Below, piece by piece: positions 481 through 60,866 of a stretch of DNA of 62,035 bases. The notes beneath the pieces are model-generated. The model was not told the origin of the DNA, did no database searches, and was given only the letters and a program-made list of their open reading frames with translations. Each line of letters opens with the position of its first letter. Position 1 is the first letter of the stretch. The stretch is taken from the IMG/VR virus record IMGVR_UViG_3300032462_000004, positions 1-62,035 of that record. One strand, 5' to 3'. The position numbers and the translations under genes are program-made. Origin of the DNA: a virus. Taxonomy: Duplodnaviria; Caudoviricetes.

Positions 481-1167
481 ATGAAGCTTTTCGAACTTAT
501 TAATACTCAGACCAAGACAACTGATATAAAATCTCCGTTTGACATGGACAAATTAAATAAAGAATACGAGAAGAAAAAAAATGGGCCGGAATCCGGATCC
601 TATGCAAGGGCCCGGCCTAATAAGAAAGATCCGCATATGTATTCCAAGTATACATATTTTCCAACCGATCTTAAGAAAGATGCATATTATCAATACATAA
701 AGGCTATCGAACCTCATATTGGTTCCAATCCGTATTTTCCCAGAGTCTATGTTGTCGAACTAATACGTGACCCGCAAGGTCAAGTTAAGCCCAACTATGG
801 CATGGAAAAATTGGTTACTGCTGATAGTTTTGATACAGATGCAATTATTGCAATGGGTGACCGGATGTTTAAAGGCTTTGCAGATGATTTTGGGTCAGGC
901 GAAAATACAACAGGCGAGGTATTTAATTCAATAATCAGGCTTGTTGCCGAGATAATGGAATGGCCATCTTCGGCCGAATATATAAAAGATGAAGAACTCA
1001 GGCAAGCATTATCTTTAATAGACAAAATAGAAAAATCAGATCCGAGTTTTGAATACGATATGCATACAGGAAATGCTATGATCAGGGGAACATCCAAAGG
1101 ACCTCAGTTTGTGCTTATGGATCCACTTTGGGATAGATCACGGGGAAGCCAGATAGGCAAAAAATAA
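481..1167 (+). CDS. Protein-kinase-like fold protein
   Basis: GSYA loop, FPRVY, MEKL, catalytic-loop-like DMHTGN and DFG-equivalent LMDP. Confidence 0.6.
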   Translation: MKLFELINTQTKTTDIKSPFDMDKLNKEYEKKKNGPESGSYARARPNKKDPHMYSKYTYFPTDLKKDAYYQYIKAIEPHIGSNPYFPRVYVVELIRDPQGQVKPNYGMEKLVTADSFDTDAIIAMGDRMFKGFADDFGSGENTTGEVFNSIIRLVAEIMEWPSSAEYIKDEELRQALSLIDKIEKSDPSFEYDMHTGNAMIRGTSKGPQFVLMDPLWDRSRGSQIGKK

Positions 1168-1176
1168 GCAGACATA

Positions 1177-1204
1177 AGAAAAGCCACTTTAAGTGGCTTT
1201 TCTA
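1177..1204. terminator. Bidirectional intrinsic terminator
   Basis: AGAAAAGCCACT-TTA-AGTGGCTTTTCT hairpin between convergent units. Confidence 0.8.
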
Positions 1205-1217
1205 TTATAGTGCAATA

Positions 1218-1379
1218 TTACAGTGTTACGGGTTCTTGTGCAGATTCCAGAACAACAATTGCAATCTCGCTATTAACCACATCAACATTCACTTTGCCGC
1301 CGAATTTTAACTCGCCAAACAAAATATGCTTAGACAATGGCTTCTTAATCTTCTCTTCGAACAGTCGCTCAAGTGGTCG
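1218..1379 (-). pseudogene. Displaced original 3' end of clpA (53 aa, no start codon)
   Basis: Reads RPLERLFEEKIKKPLSKHILFGELKFGGKVNVDVVNSEIAIVVLESAQEPVTL*; 19 of the first 25 residues match the active ClpA tail RPLERLAETEIKKPLSKEILFGKLR. Confidence 0.9.
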
Positions 1380-1410
1380 TATTATGATAAATAACAATAG
1401 AGACTTAATT

Positions 1411-2349
1411 ATGAATTACCAATTACATTATGATACCCTTATTAATAGGGCTAAACTTAGGATTTTACCATTAGATCAATATACTGAATCTCATCATATT
1501 AGGCCAACATGTATCGGTGGTAGAAATATTAAAGCTAATTTGGTTAAACTAACACCCGAGGAACATTTTGTAGCACATCAACTGCTAGTTAAGTTATATC
1601 CAGTCAATCCACTTATATTAAAAGCATGTCATATAATGACAAATAGTAACAGTAAAGTTAAACGAAATAATAAATTATACGGCTGGATAAGAAAGAGGTT
1701 AAGTATTCTATCGTCTAAAAGAGTAAACGTCGATGATACAATATACACATCGATGTTAGAGACTAGTAGGGTGTTCAATATTTCCGCGGATGTTGTCAGG
1801 CATAGATGTAAATCAACAAAATTTCCAAACTGGAATTATGCTGATGGCCTTATCATTAAGAAAATCGGAATAAGAGAAATAAATAAAATAAATTGCGATG
1901 GTATACTATTTCCATCTACCGTGCAAGCTGCCTTACATTTTAATATATCAAAAGATGCCGTCGGTCATAGATGTAAATCAACAAAATTTCCAAACTGGTT
2001 TATTATCGGAAAAGAAAAGACTGAAGAAACAAGAAATAAAAGACCGAATAAAGGTAAAATATTATGTGATGGTGTTATATTTGATGATATATACGAGGCA
2101 GCTAAATATTTTAACGTTTGCACTAATAGCATAAGTGCTAAATGTAACTCACTATATCATGAGAACTGGAATTTTTTAAATTCCCCGATAATTAAAATCA
2201 AGAAAGTAAAGAAAATTCCAGTGTGTGATAGTATTGAATTTGCATCATTCTCTGATGCAGCAAAATATTTCGGAATTACATTACAGGGTGTACTATATAG
2301 ATGTAAGACCGAAACATTTAAAGACTGGTATACTAAATATCTAAATTAA
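1411..2349 (+). CDS. HNH homing endonuclease with four tandem NUMOD1/HTH-like modules
   Basis: ESHHIRPTCIGG..NLVKLTPEEHFVAHQLL HNH motif; repeated ...RCKS..F.NW modules (exact DNA repeat near 1801-1833 and 1966-1998); start reassigned to ATG 1411 after GATAAATA. Confidence 0.85.
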   Translation: MNYQLHYDTLINRAKLRILPLDQYTESHHIRPTCIGGRNIKANLVKLTPEEHFVAHQLLVKLYPVNPLILKACHIMTNSNSKVKRNNKLYGWIRKRLSILSSKRVNVDDTIYTSMLETSRVFNISADVVRHRCKSTKFPNWNYADGLIIKKIGIREINKINCDGILFPSTVQAALHFNISKDAVGHRCKSTKFPNWFIIGKEKTEETRNKRPNKGKILCDGVIFDDIYEAAKYFNVCTNSISAKCNSLYHENWNFLNSPIIKIKKVKKIPVCDSIEFASFSDAAKYFGITLQGVLYRCKTETFKDWYTKYLN

Positions 2350-4555
2350 GAGATTCAGTAATCGTAGATTCAATTGTTAGGTGTATTTTGTCATCCAACA
2401 CATCAAATATTGCGTGGCCACCATTCCTTAGTTTACCGAACAATATTTCTTTAGACAGTGGCTTTTTAATCTCCGTCTCGGCTAAACGCTCGAGTGGTCG
2501 AGCACCCATCTTAGGATCGAATCCATGTTCGGCAAGCCAAGCACGGGCCGTTATTGTCACAGCAATCGTAATGTTCTTAGGAGCCAACATAACTTCTGTC
2601 TTCTCGACTTCAGCATTAACAATCAATGCCATTTCTGTCATTGTCAATTTCTTGTATTTGACAATACCATCCAGTCTGTTTCTAAATTCTGGAGTAAAGA
2701 ACTTTCTCAACTCGGTTTCAACAGCGGATGAATTGTCCTGATCACCAAACCCAATTTTCAATTGCTCTGCGGCAGCAGCACCAATGTTAGCTGAAAGAAT
2801 AATAATAGTGTTGGAGAAGTCAACTGTCTTTCCTTTTGCAGATGTAAGTCTGCCATCATCCATCACCTGCAATAATACAGTCAGTACATCCGGATGTGCC
2901 TTTTCAACTTCGTCCAGCAACAATACACAATTTGGATCAGTATCGACTGCCTGGATTAATTGCCCTTCGCCCATCTTACCTTCACCGTGCCCAACGTATC
3001 CCGGAGGGGCGCCGATGAACTTGGATACAGTGTGCTTTTCCATATATTCCGACATGTCGAATCGTGTAAATTTAACACCTAAGATCTCTGCAAGCTTCTT
3101 TGCCGTGTATGTCTTTCCGCTGCCAGTTGGGCCAGTAAACAAGAAGCTTCCAATCGGCTTAGCTGGATTACGCAATCCTGCTTTAGACAAGTGAATTGCA
3201 TCTACCAACTTGTCTAATGCCTCATCCTGACCATAGACTTTATCTTTGAGTCTTGGAGCAAGTTCTGCTAATGCATCATTTTCTTTCATATTCATCATCT
3301 GTGCAGGAATACGTGACAGCTTCGAAGCTGCTGAAAGAACAACGTCGTCCGAAACAACTTTCTGTTCATTCAGTTTAGCGTTTGCGCCGGCTGAGTCCAT
3401 AATGTCGATAGCCTTATCCGGGAAGAACTTTTGTTTCATGTAACGATCAGCAAGGTCCACACACATATCGAGTGTACCGGGGTTATAAGTTACATCGTGA
3501 AATTTCTCATAGTATTTTGCAAGTCCAGCAAGAATCAATTTTGTCTCAGCAACAGATGGCTGATTAATATCGTACTTCTGGAATCGACGAAGCAATGCTT
3601 TGTCCTTTTCGAAATGTTCATGGAACTCATCATATGTGGTTGCACCGACACACATAAGTTCGCCCTTAGCGAGCATAGGCTTCAATAAGTTGCCTGCATC
3701 CATTTGACTGCCAGTCGCGGAGCCAGCACCAAGAATCATGTGAATCTCATCGATGAACATGATACAGTTGCCGAGCTTCTTAACTTCGTCAAGTACACCT
3801 TTGAGGCGCTCTTCGAAATCACCTCGGAACTTTGTTCCTGCAAGCAATGCGCCGAGATCCAGACTGTATACAACTTTCTCCTGCAATGCTTTAGGAACTT
3901 CTTTGTTTGTAATTTTCAACGCCAGGCCTTCCGCAAGGGCAGTTTTTCCTACCCCCGGTTCCCCAACATAGATTACATTGTTCTTTTTCCTGCGAGCCAA
4001 GATTTCGATAGTATCGATAACTTCTTTCTCGCGACCAATGACAGGATCGATCTTGCCGTCTGCTGCTTCTTTATTGAGATTTCGAGCAAACTGGTCGAGT
4101 GCAGATTCTTCCTTTTCTTGGGATTTTTCATCTTGTTTACGTAATTTCTCAATCAGTTTTTCTCTGGTCACGCCGTTCTTATTCAGGAAATAATATGCGT
4201 GGCTTGTTTCCTCGCTAAGGATACTTAGCAAGACCGATTCGTTACTCAGCTCATTTCTGCCGCTGAATACAAGCTGTGTCAATGCACGTTGGAAGGTTCT
4301 GTGAACAACCTGTGTTCGTTTAGCAGGAATTTCCTTTAATGCATCTGGTTTTTTGAGATTAGGATCTGCAAGAAATGCAATAACATCTGCCTTTATCTTT
4401 GCAGGCTGGCAACCAGCAGACAAGATCATCTCATTTACTTCTTTCTGGTGCAACAGAGAAAGCAAAATGTGTTCCAATGTCACGTACTCATGATTATTAT
4501 CATTAGCAAACTCTGTTGCTTTTTCAACCATTTTTTCAACTTTCTTAGTACTCAT
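2333..4555 (-). CDS. clpA: ATP-dependent Clp protease ATPase subunit ClpA
   Basis: Clp N-domain (HEYVTLEHILL), two AAA modules (GEPGVGKT, GPTGSGKT), FIDEIH, LLDEVEKAH, GARPL; no ClpB coiled-coil. Confidence 0.93.
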   Translation of the reverse strand: MSTKKVEKMVEKATEFANDNNHEYVTLEHILLSLLHQKEVNEMILSAGCQPAKIKADVIAFLADPNLKKPDALKEIPAKRTQVVHRTFQRALTQLVFSGRNELSNESVLLSILSEETSHAYYFLNKNGVTREKLIEKLRKQDEKSQEKEESALDQFARNLNKEAADGKIDPVIGREKEVIDTIEILARRKKNNVIYVGEPGVGKTALAEGLALKITNKEVPKALQEKVVYSLDLGALLAGTKFRGDFEERLKGVLDEVKKLGNCIMFIDEIHMILGAGSATGSQMDAGNLLKPMLAKGELMCVGATTYDEFHEHFEKDKALLRRFQKYDINQPSVAETKLILAGLAKYYEKFHDVTYNPGTLDMCVDLADRYMKQKFFPDKAIDIMDSAGANAKLNEQKVVSDDVVLSAASKLSRIPAQMMNMKENDALAELAPRLKDKVYGQDEALDKLVDAIHLSKAGLRNPAKPIGSFLFTGPTGSGKTYTAKKLAEILGVKFTRFDMSEYMEKHTVSKFIGAPPGYVGHGEGKMGEGQLIQAVDTDPNCVLLLDEVEKAHPDVLTVLLQVMDDGRLTSAKGKTVDFSNTIIILSANIGAAAAEQLKIGFGDQDNSSAVETELRKFFTPEFRNRLDGIVKYKKLTMTEMALIVNAEVEKTEVMLAPKNITIAVTITARAWLAEHGFDPKMGARPLERLAETEIKKPLSKEILFGKLRNGGHAIFDVLDDKIHLTIESTITESLNLDI

Positions 4556-4563
4556 CTTAATCC

Positions 4564-5379
4564 TTATAAATTAATGGTTTCTCTACGCTTCACAGATTTT
4601 AGCAATTCTAACTCCTCGGTCGACAACTTAGGGACTGTTATAGAAACTCTTACCAACATATCTCCGTATTGATCCGTCTCGGGGTTTTTCATTCCCTTTT
4701 TATTTAGCTTTACTATTTTACCAAATTGCATTCCAGCAGGTATTTCGAATTCGTACTCTGCACCATCCAAGTGTACAAATTTTGCATTAATTCCAAAAAT
4801 AGCTTCAATTGCTGTTATCTCCACTTCAATCAGCAAGTCATCATTTGATCTTTTAAATTTTAAATCTGGCAAAACATCCACCCTGAACATTTTACCACCA
4901 TTGAACAACTTAGTTCCGGTTCTTATGCCTTTCGGTAAGTGTATTGTTGTTGCAGCATCTATTGTTATTGTACGCCCTATATAAGCATCTTGCAATGATA
5001 TAGTAATTACATATAAATTTTGTTTGGTCCGGGTAGTGTAAAAGTCGTCTAAGTTACCGGGTCTATGTTTAAACATTTCAGTGAATGCCTTAGCTACACC
5101 GTCCATGTCATCATTACTGTTCCAACCATCCCAGTCTGTCTTATTGTGGAATCTCTGCGAGGGATTATCGTGGGCTGCTTTCTTTTCCGGATCACTTAAT
5201 GTCTCGTAAGCTTCCTTAGCCTCTCTGAATTTCGCCGTGGCATTATTCTTCTCCGACGATTCGGTAGGGAATTTATCTGGATGATATTTGCTTGCTAGTT
5301 TTCTATATGCAGATTTAATCTGCATACTATCTGCATCTTTAGCAAGTCCTAGGATTGTGTAGTAATCCTGTTTACTCAT
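4564..5379 (-). CDS. DnaJ/CbpA-type co-chaperone without zinc finger
   Basis: J-domain [27 protein letters not shown] plus C-terminal DnaJ_C-like region. Confidence 0.9.
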
Positions 5380-5389
5380 TATTTTCTTT

Positions 5390-5605
5390 CTAGAATCGGT
5401 AAGTGATTCGCCCTAAATTCAAATCATATGGACTCATTTCAACTTCAACCACGTCATTTAGTAAAATTTGGATGTTGTTTTTCCTAATCTTACCGCTAAC
5501 AACTGCGTTCAGTATGTGCCCGTTTTCCAGTTTAATTTTAAATCTGGCGCCTGGGGAAGCATCTGTTATCTTTCCGCGAGCTGTAATCATATCTTCTTTA
5601 GCCAA
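5390..5605 (-). CDS. infA: Translation initiation factor IF-1
   Basis: (M)[42 protein letters not shown]; TTG start at 5605 after AGGA. Confidence 0.95.
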
Positions 5606-5606
5606 G

Positions 5607-6362
5607 TTATCTAGTCCTATTAACAAGTTGAGTGTTCTTCACTAACATTACCGTGTCGTCTCTATTAACGCAAAGGTATTTTCCTATCGGTAAAACATCG
5701 CAGTTACCAAGCATGTTGCTTAATATGTTAGCTTCATATGGCTTATTTTCAAGGCCAAATGCAGACTCACTTAAGAAGTTTCTGCCGATAACTGTATCAT
5801 AGTCGCCGACATCTACAACTTCAGTAACTATAGTTCTACCGTTATGGCTCATTGTAACAATGTTCCCGTCAACTGTCAAGTTGGATGCATATGATTCCTT
5901 AAGGAACATCTCGATGCCTTCTTTAATATCTTTCATTTTAAATTCGTCCTTTGGAACATATTGTTCTGGGTTTAATATAACGTAATTGAATAATTCCGGA
6001 TCGTTGAATGCAAACTCTCTATCGTCTGATAGATATGTTTTCACTGCCCAGGTTATGCTGCCGGTTAAATTTTCTATATCCTTTAGCAGTGCCTGAAATT
6101 TATTTGGGAAAGTGTCATCCCTACCCATTTCCACAAATATTAAATATCTGCCTTCTTCGTCTGTGCTTGGGCTCACTTCAACATCTAATGTATCTATGAA
6201 GCCGCGTTGAATAAATGTATTCAGATCCTCGGCAGGTTCTTCGTCCGTTAAATAGAACGCAACAACAATAACATCCTTGTCGTCGCCTGCTTTAGGCGTA
6301 AACTCATCGATGGATACATCAGGCAGCAACTTACCATTTAGGTCGCCGTTCTTTAAACTCAT
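5607..6362 (-). CDS. Hypothetical phage protein
   Basis: 251-aa ORF translationally coupled to neighbours. Confidence 0.7.
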
Positions 6363-6931
6363 ACCCCGCCTCCCATTTCTTCATCGGGATTACCCATATC
6401 ATCCATTTGACCTACTTCGGAGGTTTCGGTCGACATGTCATCCATCTCCGATGTTTCGCCATATGCATCCGCTAAGTCCGAATTTGTCTTCTCTATGTCT
6501 TTCTGGATTATATCATCTGTATGTTCGATTCCACGATTAATATATTTAATGGGCATATCTATTGTTACAAGCCAGATTTCAGATTCGTCCATCTTAGCTC
6601 GTTTGGTTTCCGGGTCTACCCAATCCTGTGGACCTTTAACTTTAACAGGACGTTTGAATACACCCTTCCTGAATCCTATCCTGGCGCCAAGTTTAGTTAG
6701 GCGTAATCCGGCATTTGGATCGGGCATCAGTTTTGCCGGATACATCCACACAGTTTTAAACCAATACCTGTCGATGTGCGGCCCCTCAACAAGTTCTCCG
6801 AGAGTCCAATTTTTATAAGCAAATATTTCTGCATTATCTAAAGTTCTCTCTAATTCTAATAACATATCGAGTACACTGTCTCCTCTGGATATATTTACTA
6901 GCGTATTTTTTATCGAATCGAGATCAGTCAT
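6359..6931 (-). CDS. Hypothetical phage protein with acidic tail
   Basis: 190-aa ORF; stop overlaps next start. Confidence 0.7.
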   Translation of the reverse strand: MTDLDSIKNTLVNISRGDSVLDMLLELERTLDNAEIFAYKNWTLGELVEGPHIDRYWFKTVWMYPAKLMPDPNAGLRLTKLGARIGFRKGVFKRPVKVKGPQDWVDPETKRAKMDESEIWLVTIDMPIKYINRGIEHTDDIIQKDIEKTNSDLADAYGETSEMDDMSTETSEVGQMDDMGNPDEEMGGGV

Positions 6932-7159
6932 TTTTTTTCCTACATTGTGTTCCGTGCCATCTCTTATAATTTCCAGGATGCATTTTTACCAAAAGTTGAT
7001 GGACCACATAATGTTCTTCTGGGGACAATCGAACAATATTTTCTTTTCTGTTATTTCCATTCATACATTTGGGGATAATATGGTGTTTTCTAAATATATG
7101 TCAACGGGACGATTAATAGATCTGGAAATTAACATTTCATAATGATATTTATAATTCAT
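6924..7159 (-). pseudogene. Frameshifted, internally deleted HNH endonuclease
   Basis: MNYKYHYEMLISRS..YLE then, in another frame, HHIIPKCMNG..NIVRLSPEEHYVVHQLLVKMHP..KRWHGTQC; paralog of 1411-2349; GATAAATA at 7166. Confidence 0.8.
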
Positions 7160-7344
7160 ATGTCTTATTTATCACAATTATGCAGATGTCGAGATTAAAA
7201 TAAATAGCCCAATTATACTGCATATATCGAATATTGTATAAATACGATTACATGATATCCTTTTATAGAGATACATTTCACAATATTAATCCTGTTCTTG
7301 GATTAGTTGTTCCACAATCTAAAATTCTTAATGGAGAAATAACC

Positions 7345-9138
7345 TTGAGTAAAAATCGTAAAATGGCAAAACTATCACCTAATTCTCGCACATCATACAA
7401 ACCAACAGACGACCAACAGTCTACGGTTGTTAAGTTCGGAAATAGGAACTATAAGAAAGTCGAGATGTTACCCAGAAATACAGCGCAGGAAGCTTACGTC
7501 GAGGCATTGCTCGATAAACGTATGGTGTTTGCAGTCGGGCCGGCCGGCACAGGAAAGGCCCAGCCATTAGATGCAAAGATTAAGATCCCCGACGGATGGG
7601 TAACAATGGGCAATATAGGCATTGGCGATGTAGTGTCTACGCCGTCCGGCGGTACAGCAAATGTTGTTGGTGTATTTCCGCAAGGAATGAAAGACATATA
7701 TCGTATTACATTTTCCGATGGCAGAACTACCGAATGTTGTAAAGAACACTTGTGGGAGGTTTATTACAGAGATAATTGGGGCAATATATCCAAGGTCATG
7801 AGTTTAGGTGATATTATAGAAAAATCTAAGAAATTTAAAAAGAAATTTCAGATTAGATTGCCGAAGCACGAAAACACTGCCGATGTTGACCTGCCTATTA
7901 ATCCATATGTCCTAGGCTGTCTCCTGGGAGACGGATCTATGACTATTACAGGCAGGATAGAATTTTCGAGTGCAGACAAAGAAATCGTTAATCGACTTAA
8001 TGAATCTGTACCTGACGGCACATTTAAATTTAAATCCAACTATGATTATATATTTGTGTCAGGAGGAAAAGGGTCTGGCCATACACCAGGGAAGTTCGGA
8101 TCAGAATTAAGACAAAATATATTTAATCTTGGCCTGTTTGGAAAAAAATCTTTCGAAAAATTTATCCCATTAGCATATTTGAATTCTTCAGAATCTCAAA
8201 AAATTGAATTATTACGTGGATTGCTGGACACCGACGGATATGCTGATTCTAAAAATAACGGATTGTACTTTACATCTACCAGTAAAATACTTGCAGAACA
8301 AGTTCAGTACCTTGTAAGATCCATCGGCGGCACCGCAAAAATTTCATCCAAGGTCCCTACTTATACATATAAAGGAATTAAAAAATATGGCAGAATTGCA
8401 TATGATGTAAAGATAGATCGTAAAGACAAAAAAAATCTAGTATCTTTGCAGAGGAAAAAAGACTGTTTATCTGACAACGGACAATACATAAAATTTAACA
8501 CTATATCTATTAGTAAGATAGAATTGGCAGGATCTAAAGAAGCACAATGTATTATGATTGATTCCGAAGATCATCTGTATATCACCGACGATTTTATAGT
8601 GACACACAATACACTGTTGGCTGTTCTTAGAGCAATTAAAGCATTAAGGGAACATGAGATAACACGGATTATCATAACTCGCCCTGCTGTTAGCGTTGAC
8701 GAAAAACATGGATTTTTGCCAGGAGATTTGAATGCTAAAATGGAACCATGGACACGACCTATATTCGATGTGTTCGATGAATACTACGGTGTAGTGGAAA
8801 CAAAGAAAATGCTAGAAGATGGAACAATTGAAATTGCCCCACTAGGCTTTATGAGGGGTCGAACTTTTAAACATTCGTATGTGATTTTAGATGAGGCCCA
8901 GAATTGCACACCGTCACAAATGACTATGGTCCTAACTCGTTTAGGGGAAGGTAGTTCTATAGTAGTTACCGGTGACTTAAAACAACATGATAGAGGATTT
9001 GAAGAAAACGGATTAAAAGATTTCCTTAAAAGATTTCCTAAATCTGACAACGACATAGCTGTATGTACATTTGAAAGATGTCATGTCGAAAGAGACCCAC
9101 TTGTATCTAAGGTATTAGGCATTTACGGTCAGGATTAA
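7345..9138 (+). CDS. phoH: PhoH-family ATPase containing an intein
   Basis: GPAGTGK|T P-loop, TRPAV, GFLPGDL..KM.PW, RGRTF, ILDEAQN, VTGD..Q.D; TTG start at 7345 after GGAG. Confidence 0.92.
   Translation: MSKNRKMAKLSPNSRTSYKPTDDQQSTVVKFGNRNYKKVEMLPRNTAQEAYVEALLDKRMVFAVGPAGTGKAQPLDAKIKIPDGWVTMGNIGIGDVVSTPSGGTANVVGVFPQGMKDIYRITFSDGRTTECCKEHLWEVYYRDNWGNISKVMSLGDIIEKSKKFKKKFQIRLPKHENTADVDLPINPYVLGCLLGDGSMTITGRIEFSSADKEIVNRLNESVPDGTFKFKSNYDYIFVSGGKGSGHTPGKFGSELRQNIFNLGLFGKKSFEKFIPLAYLNSSESQKIELLRGLLDTDGYADSKNNGLYFTSTSKILAEQVQYLVRSIGGTAKISSKVPTYTYKGIKKYGRIAYDVKIDRKDKKNLVSLQRKKDCLSDNGQYIKFNTISISKIELAGSKEAQCIMIDSEDHLYITDDFIVTHNTLLAVLRAIKALREHEITRIIITRPAVSVDEKHGFLPGDLNAKMEPWTRPIFDVFDEYYGVVETKKMLEDGTIEIAPLGFMRGRTFKHSYVILDEAQNCTPSQMTMVLTRLGEGSSIVVTGDLKQHDRGFEENGLKDFLKRFPKSDNDIAVCTFERCHVERDPLVSKVLGIYGQD
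7558..8610 (+). mobile_element. Ala1 intein with LAGLIDADG endonuclease and class-3 WCT signature
   Basis: GK|AQPLDA ... CCKEHLW (block B Trp) ... LGCLLGDG, LRGLLDTDG ... AQCIMI (block F Cys) ... VTHN|T. Confidence 0.9.
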
Positions 9139-21737: not shown

Positions 21738-21778
21738 AGTATTTACTCTCTTAGCTTATTATTTTGATAAATACGATT

Positions 21779-30790: not shown

Positions 30791-31411
30791 CTAGTGTGTT
30801 AATGATCTACGTAATTGTTGTGCTATTCTCATTTTATTCTTTGTATCTTCAGATTTCGAACGACCTGCTAATGCATTTGATATTTTATCTTTGTGATCTT
30901 GCGTATGCGGCCCCTGCTTTTTACCCATATGGCTTTTAGAAATCTTTAGTTTAACTTCCTTTGATCGACTATTTCCCCTATTAATATTCGACATCCTTTG
31001 CATATGTTCCGGAGAATGCATTTTTCCTTTTTGTGCAATCGACATCTTCTCTTTAGTCTCATCTGAGAATATTCTGCCCGTTAATGCAATAGAAAGTTTA
31101 TTTTTATGTTCTTCCGAAAATATAGCACCGGGAGATCCTTCCCCTCCATCTGTCTTATTATGTAAAATACCAGTTCCCAAATCTTTTCTTCCGTACCATT
31201 TAATCATTCTTCGTTCTAAACACAAAGACCCAAAGTTAGTCAGATTCGTCTCTAAAAACACAATTTTAGTATTATCTTTAGGTAAAGAAACGCCGACATG
31301 CTTTCTATACGCCCTGTCTCCAGAACCCTTTCCTATATAATATGGTGTTCCGCTCTTTGCTGTTATAGAATCGCTCGATCTAATATATGCATAAACGTAA
31401 AAACTAATCAT
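30791..31411 (-). CDS. GIY-YIG-like homing endonuclease with NUMOD3 repeats
   Basis: FYVYAY...PYYIGKG.G.RA, YGRKDLGTGIL.NKTDGGEG, (H/F)SEEHK repeats. Confidence 0.85.
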   Translation of the reverse strand: MISFYVYAYIRSSDSITAKSGTPYYIGKGSGDRAYRKHVGVSLPKDNTKIVFLETNLTNFGSLCLERRMIKWYGRKDLGTGILHNKTDGGEGSPGAIFSEEHKNKLSIALTGRIFSDETKEKMSIAQKGKMHSPEHMQRMSNINRGNSRSKEVKLKISKSHMGKKQGPHTQDHKDKISNALAGRSKSEDTKNKMRIAQQLRRSLTH

Positions 31412-59987: not shown

Positions 59988-60866
59988 TTATTTATCATTT
60001 TCGGAAATATACTTGGCTATTTCGGGTGGATATATGAACATTTTAGCATCATCTCGCATAGATAAGTCATATACAATCTGCTTCCATACCTTTTCTTGAG
60101 TATTCTTATCATAATTACGCTTAACAGCATTCATTAGTGTTTCGACACTGTCTAAATCAAACAATGTGTTACTTTCAGGAAATAATGTACCAATAACTGC
60201 GTGGAAATCAAATACAGGCGTAGTTAATTGCGTATCTTTCTGTTTTTTATGAACTTTTCCCGAAGATTCGTTAAAAGTCGATACTCTTTCGACCTGAACA
60301 AACCCTTTTGGGCCAAATTTCCACCTAATCTGGGATACAGGGCGCCCAAAAGTATCCAATTTATCTGAAACTTCGGTTGCCAATGCGGTACAAATTGCAG
60401 ATATTAATATATTTCTGTGAAATCCTTTATACTCTGACTCGGCGCCGGCACTAAAATGGAATATCTTTTCCCATTTTACATCGCCAAATATAAAATCAAC
60501 TTGAACAAACCCTGTTCGTGGTTTTCTCTCTTGTAGTTCTTCCTTGTAATTTACAATGGGATACTTAAGATGAATCATTGTTCCTGTTCGGCGAGTGTCA
60601 TTTTCGTTATATATTAAATCCAAGTGCTTCTTGAATGCTACAGGACCATGGCCCCACTCGTAGTCACCTAGAACTAAATCTAAGTCACCCGAATATTCTT
60701 TCTTACCAGTAGAACCTATAGCGAAATCATTCAAATCGATATGAAATCCTAGATCATCTGATAATTTATCTAACGTTGGCTTTACTTCCGATTTGTGAAT
60801 GGTTCCGCAATCCGGTATAGCACCACCACCTTCATTTTCGGGTATTGTTCTGTATTTTAGTTCCAT
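59988..60866 (-). CDS. Pol-beta-superfamily nucleotidyltransferase-like protein
   Basis: IGSTGKKEYSGDLDLV (hGS..DxD) and VQVDF third Asp. Confidence 0.7.
   Translation of the reverse strand: MELKYRTIPENEGGGAIPDCGTIHKSEVKPTLDKLSDDLGFHIDLNDFAIGSTGKKEYSGDLDLVLGDYEWGHGPVAFKKHLDLIYNENDTRRTGTMIHLKYPIVNYKEELQERKPRTGFVQVDFIFGDVKWEKIFHFSAGAESEYKGFHRNILISAICTALATEVSDKLDTFGRPVSQIRWKFGPKGFVQVERVSTFNESSGKVHKKQKDTQLTTPVFDFHAVIGTLFPESNTLFDLDSVETLMNAVKRNYDKNTQEKVWKQIVYDLSMRDDAKMFIYPPEIAKYISENDK

Follow-up and report, generated by a model that had tools for sequence, protein, structure and literature searches.

Why does a phage clpA gene have two endings, with a nuclease gene on the opposite strand between them? 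The question is raised by the IMG/VR record IMGVR_UViG_3300032462_000004 (Caudoviricetes), which was analysed over its whole length of 62,035 bases (referred to as the window below) and which represents a fragment of a jumbo phage, as its completeness is estimated at 16%. An earlier note, made from the letters of this DNA without database searches, had described a clpA gene with a diverged tail, an antisense HNH gene, a second ClpA C-terminus and a terminator, and the positions it gave for these were all confirmed in the sequence. Our answer is that a MobE-type HNH gene, a promoter-like motif and the foreign last 55 codons of clpA are likely to form one insertion of 1.1 kb (1380-2500) at the codons of the sensor-2 GARP motif, which has left the 53 native codons and their terminator stranded downstream, presumably through homing. 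This agrees with the note, which had also read 1380-2500 as a single inserted unit carrying a replacement end: the motif, the HNH gene and the antisense ending lie together in what is otherwise the canonical site of a gene followed by its terminator.

The clpA gene (2333-4555, minus strand) is whole, being a single open reading frame (ORF) of 740 amino acids (aa) with the full set of ClpA domains (Clp_N, AAA, AAA_2, AAA_lid_9 and D2-small, the last at residues 637-715) and a match to TIGR02639 at E 2.1e-260, and its body is 76-84% identical to those of 119 relatives. The ending predicted to be in use, called the working ending here, continues the frame of the body from the Arg codon of GARPLERL, completes the D2-small domain and begins with ...LAETE... 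With the frame kept across the junction to this substitute ending, ClpA stays whole, and as one 740-aa ORF the gene is not divided into two separately translated parts in the manner of the Aeh1 nrdA split. No terminator hairpin follows the working ending, which runs into the antisense HNH gene; the 3' end of the latter overlaps the clpA stop by 17 nucleotides (nt), which bears out the overlap described in the note.

The second copy, called the stranded ending here, is contained in the ORF 1218..1397 (minus strand), of which 53 codons (1221-1379) align with ClpA residues 686-738 (26/53 identical, E 4e-14) and match the D2-small model of Pfam (PF10431) at E 1.2e-5. In both endings the homology sets in precisely at the Arg codon. 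The two endings are identical at 19 of their first 25 residues, a count from the note which held on recounting together with the continuation of active clpA from the codon at 2500, and overall the endings have 49% protein identity and share 57 of the first 84 nt. Neither ATG nor GTG is available as a start for the stranded piece, no Shine-Dalgarno-like sequence was seen by eye 5' of its TTG, and a hairpin, missed by a consensus terminator scan, begins 17 nt past its stop; alignment and hairpin thus match the description of a start-less C-terminus which begins at RPLERL and is followed by a terminator. This old end is still open, as was also stated there; shuffles of the stretch remained open in only 1.8% of 20,000 trials.

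Table 1. Features of the clpA-HNH locus, with positions in the window
Feature	Position	Strand	Basis
clpA body, codons 1-685, to the Gly-Ala of the sensor-2 GARP motif	2501..4555	-	ORF and domain matches
Working (replacement) clpA ending, codons 686-740 and stop, in frame with the body	2333..2500	-	ORF, ClpA alignment, D2-small domain
Predicted homing endonuclease gene of MobE-like HNH type, free-standing, on the strand opposite to clpA, 312 aa	1411..2349	+	PHROG, Pfam, T6 MobE homology
Promoter-like motif TGATAAATA, 17 nt 5' of the HNH start codon	1385..1393	+	Enrichment in the record
Putative inserted unit, 1,121 bp	1380..2500	.	Start of homology between the two endings at 1379 and 2500
Upstream copy (clpA sense) of the 14-nt imperfect direct repeat, RPLER codons	2487..2500	.	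13/14 identity to 1366-1379
Downstream copy of the repeat, at the start of the stranded ending	1366..1379	.	13/14 identity to 2487-2500
Stranded, start-less, native-type clpA ending, 53 codons and stop	1218..1379	-	ClpA alignment, PF10431
Terminator-like hairpin, 12-bp stem, A-run and T-run flanks	1177..1203	.	dG -19.4, z -5.4
ORF convergent with the stranded ending, on the other side of the hairpin	481-1167		

The gene between the two endings was started by gene callers at an upstream ATG, giving 321 aa, but as the four full-length homologues of its product (P0122-P0125; 48-56% identical) all begin with MNY, we place the start at 1411. The protein matches phrog_655 ('homing endonuclease') at E 3.3e-42 and phrog_12434 ('HNH endonuclease') at E 7e-7, with the PHROGs named 'HNH endonuclease' all giving weaker matches than phrog_655, and over residues 1-202 it shares 35% identity with T6 MobE (E 3e-16). 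Its C-terminal part contains four I-TevI_DNA-bd stretches (E 2.2e-35) and NUMOD1 and matches the structure of the I-TevI DNA-binding domain (1i3j, E 2.5e-6), and the corresponding part of the gene (1774-2335, plus strand) is built of 165-nt modules. Residues H28, H29, N43, H52 and H56 are invariant across 49 homologues, and a profile of the homologues matches the HNH regions of McrA (6ghc, E 0.0044), Cas8f-HNH fusions and a group II intron maturase. Taken together, these matches identify it as a predicted Mob-class HNH homing endonuclease gene, intact and free-standing. The gene is AT-rich and lies about 10 GC points under its surroundings (GC fraction 0.308 in the HNH gene and 0.317 in the putative unit, compared with 0.375 in the working ending, 0.414 in the stranded ending, 0.428 in the clpA body and 0.392 in the record). 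No Rfam family was found in 900-3000 at E values up to 1, hence no intron, and an intein-type in-frame insertion does not fit either, the HNH gene being antisense to clpA and the clpA frame continuing into a ClpA-like ending; the view that neither intron nor intein is needed therefore stands.

A promoter upstream of the HNH gene is plausible. The motif TGATAAATA is present in 14 copies in the record, compared with 1.98 expected, a number reached by none of 100 shuffles; its sites include 468-476, 1385-1393, 21765-21773 and 59989-59997. Twelve of the 14 copies are located 4-56 nt upstream of an ORF of at least 50 aa, and a thirteenth precedes a decayed copy of the same HNH family. No sigma-70-like site was found 5' of the HNH gene, and the T4 late consensus is not enriched in the record (6 copies versus 7.4 expected). 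The late promoter which had been proposed in front of the HNH gene is thus upheld in part, as an enriched, promoter-like motif preceding ORFs. In many relatives a GATAAAT motif follows the clpA terminator.

The site at which the two endings diverge from a common body is highly conserved: conservation among 28 unique relatives, taken over 204 nt, peaks in a 15-nt window which begins 10 nt ahead of the joint and extends across it. This peak consists of the codons of K-M-G-A-R-P, the GAR(P) stretch of which we take to be the sensor-2 motif of the second AAA+ module. Such conserved sites are typical for homing endonucleases. The first 14 nt of the two endings are identical at 13 positions, and the ends of the unit can be placed no more finely than this repeat allows. 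The 14-mer of the stranded ending was matched at 12 or more positions in only two of the 146 other loci, and in the 18 nt directly past the repeat the two copies have nine mismatches, which include a change from a Phe which is 97% conserved to Ala. A sliding nearest-neighbour analysis gave a mosaic body, with no clear co-conversion tract upstream of the joint.

When both endings were compared with those of the relatives, it was the stranded one which looks native, with tests of context, similarity and calibration in agreement. A hairpin of at least 8 bp starts 1-21 nt past the clpA stop in 23 of 27 unique relatives, and the stranded ending has this same stop-spacer-hairpin layout, including AGAAAAG...CTTTTCT flanks as in loci L004 and L037. 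Similarity favours the stranded ending in 102 of the 119 relatives and the working ending in 13, four being tied, and the commonest start of an ending (RPFERLFEEK, 43/119) is that of the stranded copy except for Leu in place of Phe. In a calibration on pairs of relatives, an ending identity of 0.59 is expected at a body identity of 0.81; the mean identity of the stranded ending to the endings of the relatives is 0.568, at the 27th percentile of their own values, compared with 0.496 for the working ending, which is below all 119 relatives. The note had suggested that HNH-free relatives be inspected for a tail like that of the working ending: the endings of the closest ones begin with ...FEEKIKKPLSKEILFG, like the stranded copy, and not with the LAE... 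tail, which was found only in one of the 119 proteins and at locus L034, both of them with distant bodies.

The HNH gene itself is distributed sporadically, as none of the 36 syntenic close relatives carries it at this site. In all 36 close relatives that include the ending there is nothing between this ending and the terminator, and neither an HNH gene nor a second ending was found downstream of clpA in any of them, whereas eight loci (L005, L006, L009, L012, L018, L021, L029 and L032) have an HNH homologue approximately 2.6-3 kb upstream of clpA. The family of the nuclease catalytic domain is large, with 371 proteins and, from a separate search, 372 IMG/VR stretches. Relatives of the HNH gene were also seen inside tRNA gene arrays, as in L082 (2863-3796) and in L167, L189, L195, L213, L214, L233 and L200. 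In L082 the HNH gene (2956-3714) lies directly between two 82-nt tRNA-Thr genes which have different anticodons and are approximately 85-89% alike, and which could be either an analogous duplication around an endonuclease gene or two paralogues, while in L200 (1683-2576) an HNH gene is flanked on both sides by GIY-YIG-type genes which share 57% identity across approximately 220 aa. Searches for the locus itself gave no match with megablast against phages, matches of at most 48.7% identity with tblastn against phages, and best loci of 72-81% identity in an IMG/VR scan. A metagenome scan with generic AAA+ patterns gave, among the matches listed, relatives at only about 50%, which says nothing on absence. 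An exact 30-mer of the stranded ending had no match in IMG/VR, and a weak search for stranded endings called as small proteins elsewhere, which requires shared 5-residue words, returned only the ORF of this locus.

Several observations weigh against the reading of 1380-2500 as an inserted replacement unit. No HNH-free allele with a near-identical body was found, the next ClpA in the protein database being 83% identical, and therefore the term 'native' rests on context and statistics rather than on a before-and-after pair. Likewise, the foreign origin of the working ending is a statistical signal only, because its five best neighbours include P0003 and P0004, the nearest relatives of the body, and no donor was found for it, the best matches being 32/55 and 55-56%. 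Both endings keep 15 of the 17 conserved positions equally, and both share the Leu of RPL, which is present in only three of the 119 relatives (the other 116 have RPF); together with the 13/14 repeat this suggests either conversion at the joint or a native allele of the RPL type. Among the loci searched, the arrangement also lacks a counterpart. A credible second clpA ending was found in none of the 147 clpA loci: the 33 scattered weak matches in locus L149, on both strands, were put down to composition, and the 11 loci in which no ending was recognised comprise one truncated contig and ten colinear ClpA genes with another motif, none of them interrupted. A screen of 79 loci with related HNH genes, which recovered the duplication at our locus as a positive control, detected a duplicated gene end in none of them, and the similarity between flanks in 12 of the 79 consisted of tRNA genes on both sides (seven loci), tandem GIY-YIG genes (one locus) and short weak matches (four loci). 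Finally, no Pfam HNH domain was recognised in the N-terminal 120 residues of the nuclease.

As the record is a metagenome assembly, two strains could have been joined by error, and one low-depth contig of run X5 stops at 1376, 4 nt short of the joint; in this run, 1621-2520 is uncovered and the depth is approximately 4, too thin for calling an HNH-free variant. We consider such an artefact practically negligible, since both joints are bridged in independent contigs. In run X1, the likely source, contigs 403-1830 and 1969-5400 span both joints without differences, and they break where two neighbouring DNA-binding modules of the HNH gene share an identical run (1802-1833 and 1967-1998). The independent salt-lake run X4 (2020) has contig 1301-1531 across 1380 and contig 2444-2882 across 2500, the latter with two differences and thus from a slightly different strain, while contig 2426-2576 of the estuary run X6 (2022) spans the joint at 2500. 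Beyond the source run, three further studies have runs with contigs which bridge the arrangement, and the hybrid ClpA was present on six contigs, as was the HNH protein. None of the runs that contain the stretch is an RNA run. The misassembly at 1380 or 2500 which the earlier note had named as a possible refutation is therefore not what these contigs contain. The suggestion of a recent event gained no support: the same arrangement was found in samples of 2017, 2020 and 2022, so that it must be regarded as an established feature of this phage and not as an event observed while it happens. The direct repeat architecture could also result from a tandem duplication of the gene end in place, followed by divergence and later arrival of the HNH gene between the copies. 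This is very improbable, because the copies are as far apart as different lineages (49% protein identity, 57/84 nt) and because the unused copy is typical and open and the used copy is the outlier, the opposite of decay after duplication; moreover, two endings without an HNH gene were seen in none of the 147 loci.

The polarity of the event could be the reverse, with the working ending native and an HNH gene plus a foreign fragment of a clpA end (approximately 1218-2332) inserted just past the clpA stop. Neither ending has a near-identical relative, and the closest relatives of the body are among the top neighbours of the working ending, both of which would suit this reading. We nevertheless regard it as improbable, since it is the stranded and not the working ending that has the canonical stop-spacer-hairpin context and is typical for the body, the working one being more divergent than all 119 relatives, and since the insertion would have to be combined with a loss of the native spacer and terminator and would leave unexplained why the fragment starts exactly at the conserved Arg codon. 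A less distant alternative, though still an unlikely one, is a one-off patch, in which a break in clpA was repaired from a diverged co-infecting phage with an HNH gene downstream of its own clpA, and the far end was joined illegitimately or via the 14-nt microhomology, leaving a scar and not a homing cassette. The layout is unique among the 147 clpA loci and 79 related HNH loci, the joints carry the 13/14 repeat, and the free-standing HNH genes of this family are typically located between genes, often in tRNA arrays, all of which would be consistent with a single accident. On the other hand, the patch would have produced the same structure, already equipped with both homology arms for homing; the unit is a compact one that includes a promoter motif and in which the 3' ends overlap; and the rare Leu codon at the joint in both copies would be expected if the donor already had a stranded ending.

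An inserted unit carrying a replacement end remains our preferred reading, and it would operate as follows. During co-infection the enzyme would nick or cut HNH-free clpA alleles near the conserved site, and recombinational repair would copy the unit from the HNH-bearing genome, with the clpA body as homology arm on one side and the stranded ending and the DNA downstream of it on the other. The recognition site would be spoiled by the recoding at the start of the substitute ending, so that the carrier would be protected. The cleavage target, the mobility as a unit and the immunity to cutting are in this scheme what we infer from the layout. A more far-reaching version, which we put forward tentatively and consider doubtful, is that the 1.1-kb unit is a self-contained and still active end-replacement homing cassette, made up of MobE-like nuclease, promoter and recoded gene end, with the stranded end as its downstream arm, and that a substitute gene end represents a third general route, beside introns and inteins, to the catalytic-motif codons of conserved genes in large phages.

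Other endonuclease-related features were seen in the window. At 6921-7174 (minus strand) there is a decayed copy of the same HNH family, in which TGATAAATA at 7166-7174 is followed by a start MNYKYHYEMLISRS... in one frame, with an HHIIPKC...EEHYVVHQLLVK core in another frame behind stops and no DNA-binding domain; its site roughly corresponds to the position of the HNH homologue upstream of clpA in the eight relatives mentioned above. In a PhoH-like protein (gene 7234-9138, plus strand, 634 aa), the P-loop GPAGTGK is separated by a LAGLIDADG_3 domain (residues 322-400) from the remainder of the PhoH domain (459-631); an intein at the Walker A motif is the probable explanation. An endonuclease-like ORF (30791-31411, minus strand) with NUMOD3 and a match to phrog_314 ('homing endonuclease', E 1.4e-15) lies between the ClpS and Hsp20 genes. 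The region 2333-33533 contains a whole proteostasis set (ClpA, DnaJ, two ClpP, ClpS, ClpX and Hsp20) as well as a gene for ribosomal protein S21, and the short ORF 5390-5626 is IF-1-like as read from its sequence. This lineage is possibly a relative of the aquatic 'moraphages', among the core genes of which are ClpA and PhoH (PMC12619734).

The locus gives a clear view, in a phage, of an endonuclease gene that has come to occupy a conserved catalytic-motif site without an intron or intein, with a likely foreign gene end swapped in. Such events create chimeric essential genes and move sequence between phage lineages, and they mislead gene callers, as the stranded ending was called as a 59-aa ORF on two contigs. 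Should the unit indeed home, the mechanism of the mitochondrial mORFs discussed below would be extended to phages, and a nuclease-target pair would be open to test.

Among phage systems, one of the closest is MobE of the T-even phages, which makes a strand-specific nick in the neighbouring nrdB of the MobE-free phage T2 and is inherited at high frequency together with flanking DNA (Wilson and Edgell 2009, PMC2790892). The two have in common a homologous nuclease and a free-standing position beside a conserved gene, but MobE is located between nrdA and nrdB, lacks a promoter and duplicates nothing, whereas the HNH gene studied here lies within the span of a reading frame and brings a replacement gene end with it. 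The genes split by endonuclease insertion, for which the T4 review gives Aeh1 nrdA/mobE, T4 39/60 with mobA and gene 43 of phage 25 (Edgell et al. 2010, PMC2988022), also have a free-standing endonuclease gene at a functionally critical region of a conserved gene; unlike in those cases, which give two polypeptides, ClpA here is one polypeptide and the insertion supplies its new end. The words 'duplication' and 'duplicated' do not occur in this review. In the HEG-islands of ICP1-like phages, homing endonuclease genes again lie beside essential genes, and the preprint of Barth et al. (2023, PMC10055350) describes fragments of essential genes next to endonuclease genes, proposed there as recombination substrates. 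Its text does not resolve a case in which a gene end is exactly replaced in frame while the native one is left stranded, as is seen here, but Figure 4 and the supplements of that preprint may hold closer phage cases. The literature search, at the level of text, returned no paper which resolves an in-frame replacement of the end of a phage gene. The statement in the earlier note that a phage chaperone target is unusual is weakened by what Barth et al. report.

The closest parallel is found outside phages, as the note had already recognised in pointing to the atp genes of fungal mitochondria. The 'gene hybrids' made by mobile endonuclease ORFs (mORFs) and described by Beaudet et al. (2013, PMC3630166) affect atp6, atp9, cox2 and nad3 of Glomus sp. 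and atp6 of Allomyces macrogynus. In these genes a C-terminal part of foreign origin comes first, together with an endonuclease ORF, and the native part, which resembles the sister species more, is stranded behind them; duplications of this kind are also mentioned in PMC6279837 and PMC7487136. There are differences: the fungal endonucleases are LAGLIDADG or GIY-YIG enzymes in phase with the host gene, whereas the one studied here is a predicted HNH enzyme, antisense and preceded by a promoter-like motif within the unit; the gene concerned is a chaperone gene and belongs to a jumbo phage; and, unlike in the fungi, no near-identical uninterrupted relative was found. In both, the endonuclease ORF lies between two C-terminal copies, of which the inserted one is in frame and completes the protein, with intron and intein unneeded; the stranded downstream copy is closer to the sister species in the fungi and to 102 of 119 relatives here, and the divergence between the copies is strong (64-81% nucleotide identity in the fungal mORFs, 57 of the first 84 nt here). 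The clpA locus of this phage is thus a further case of a layout long known from fungal mitochondria.

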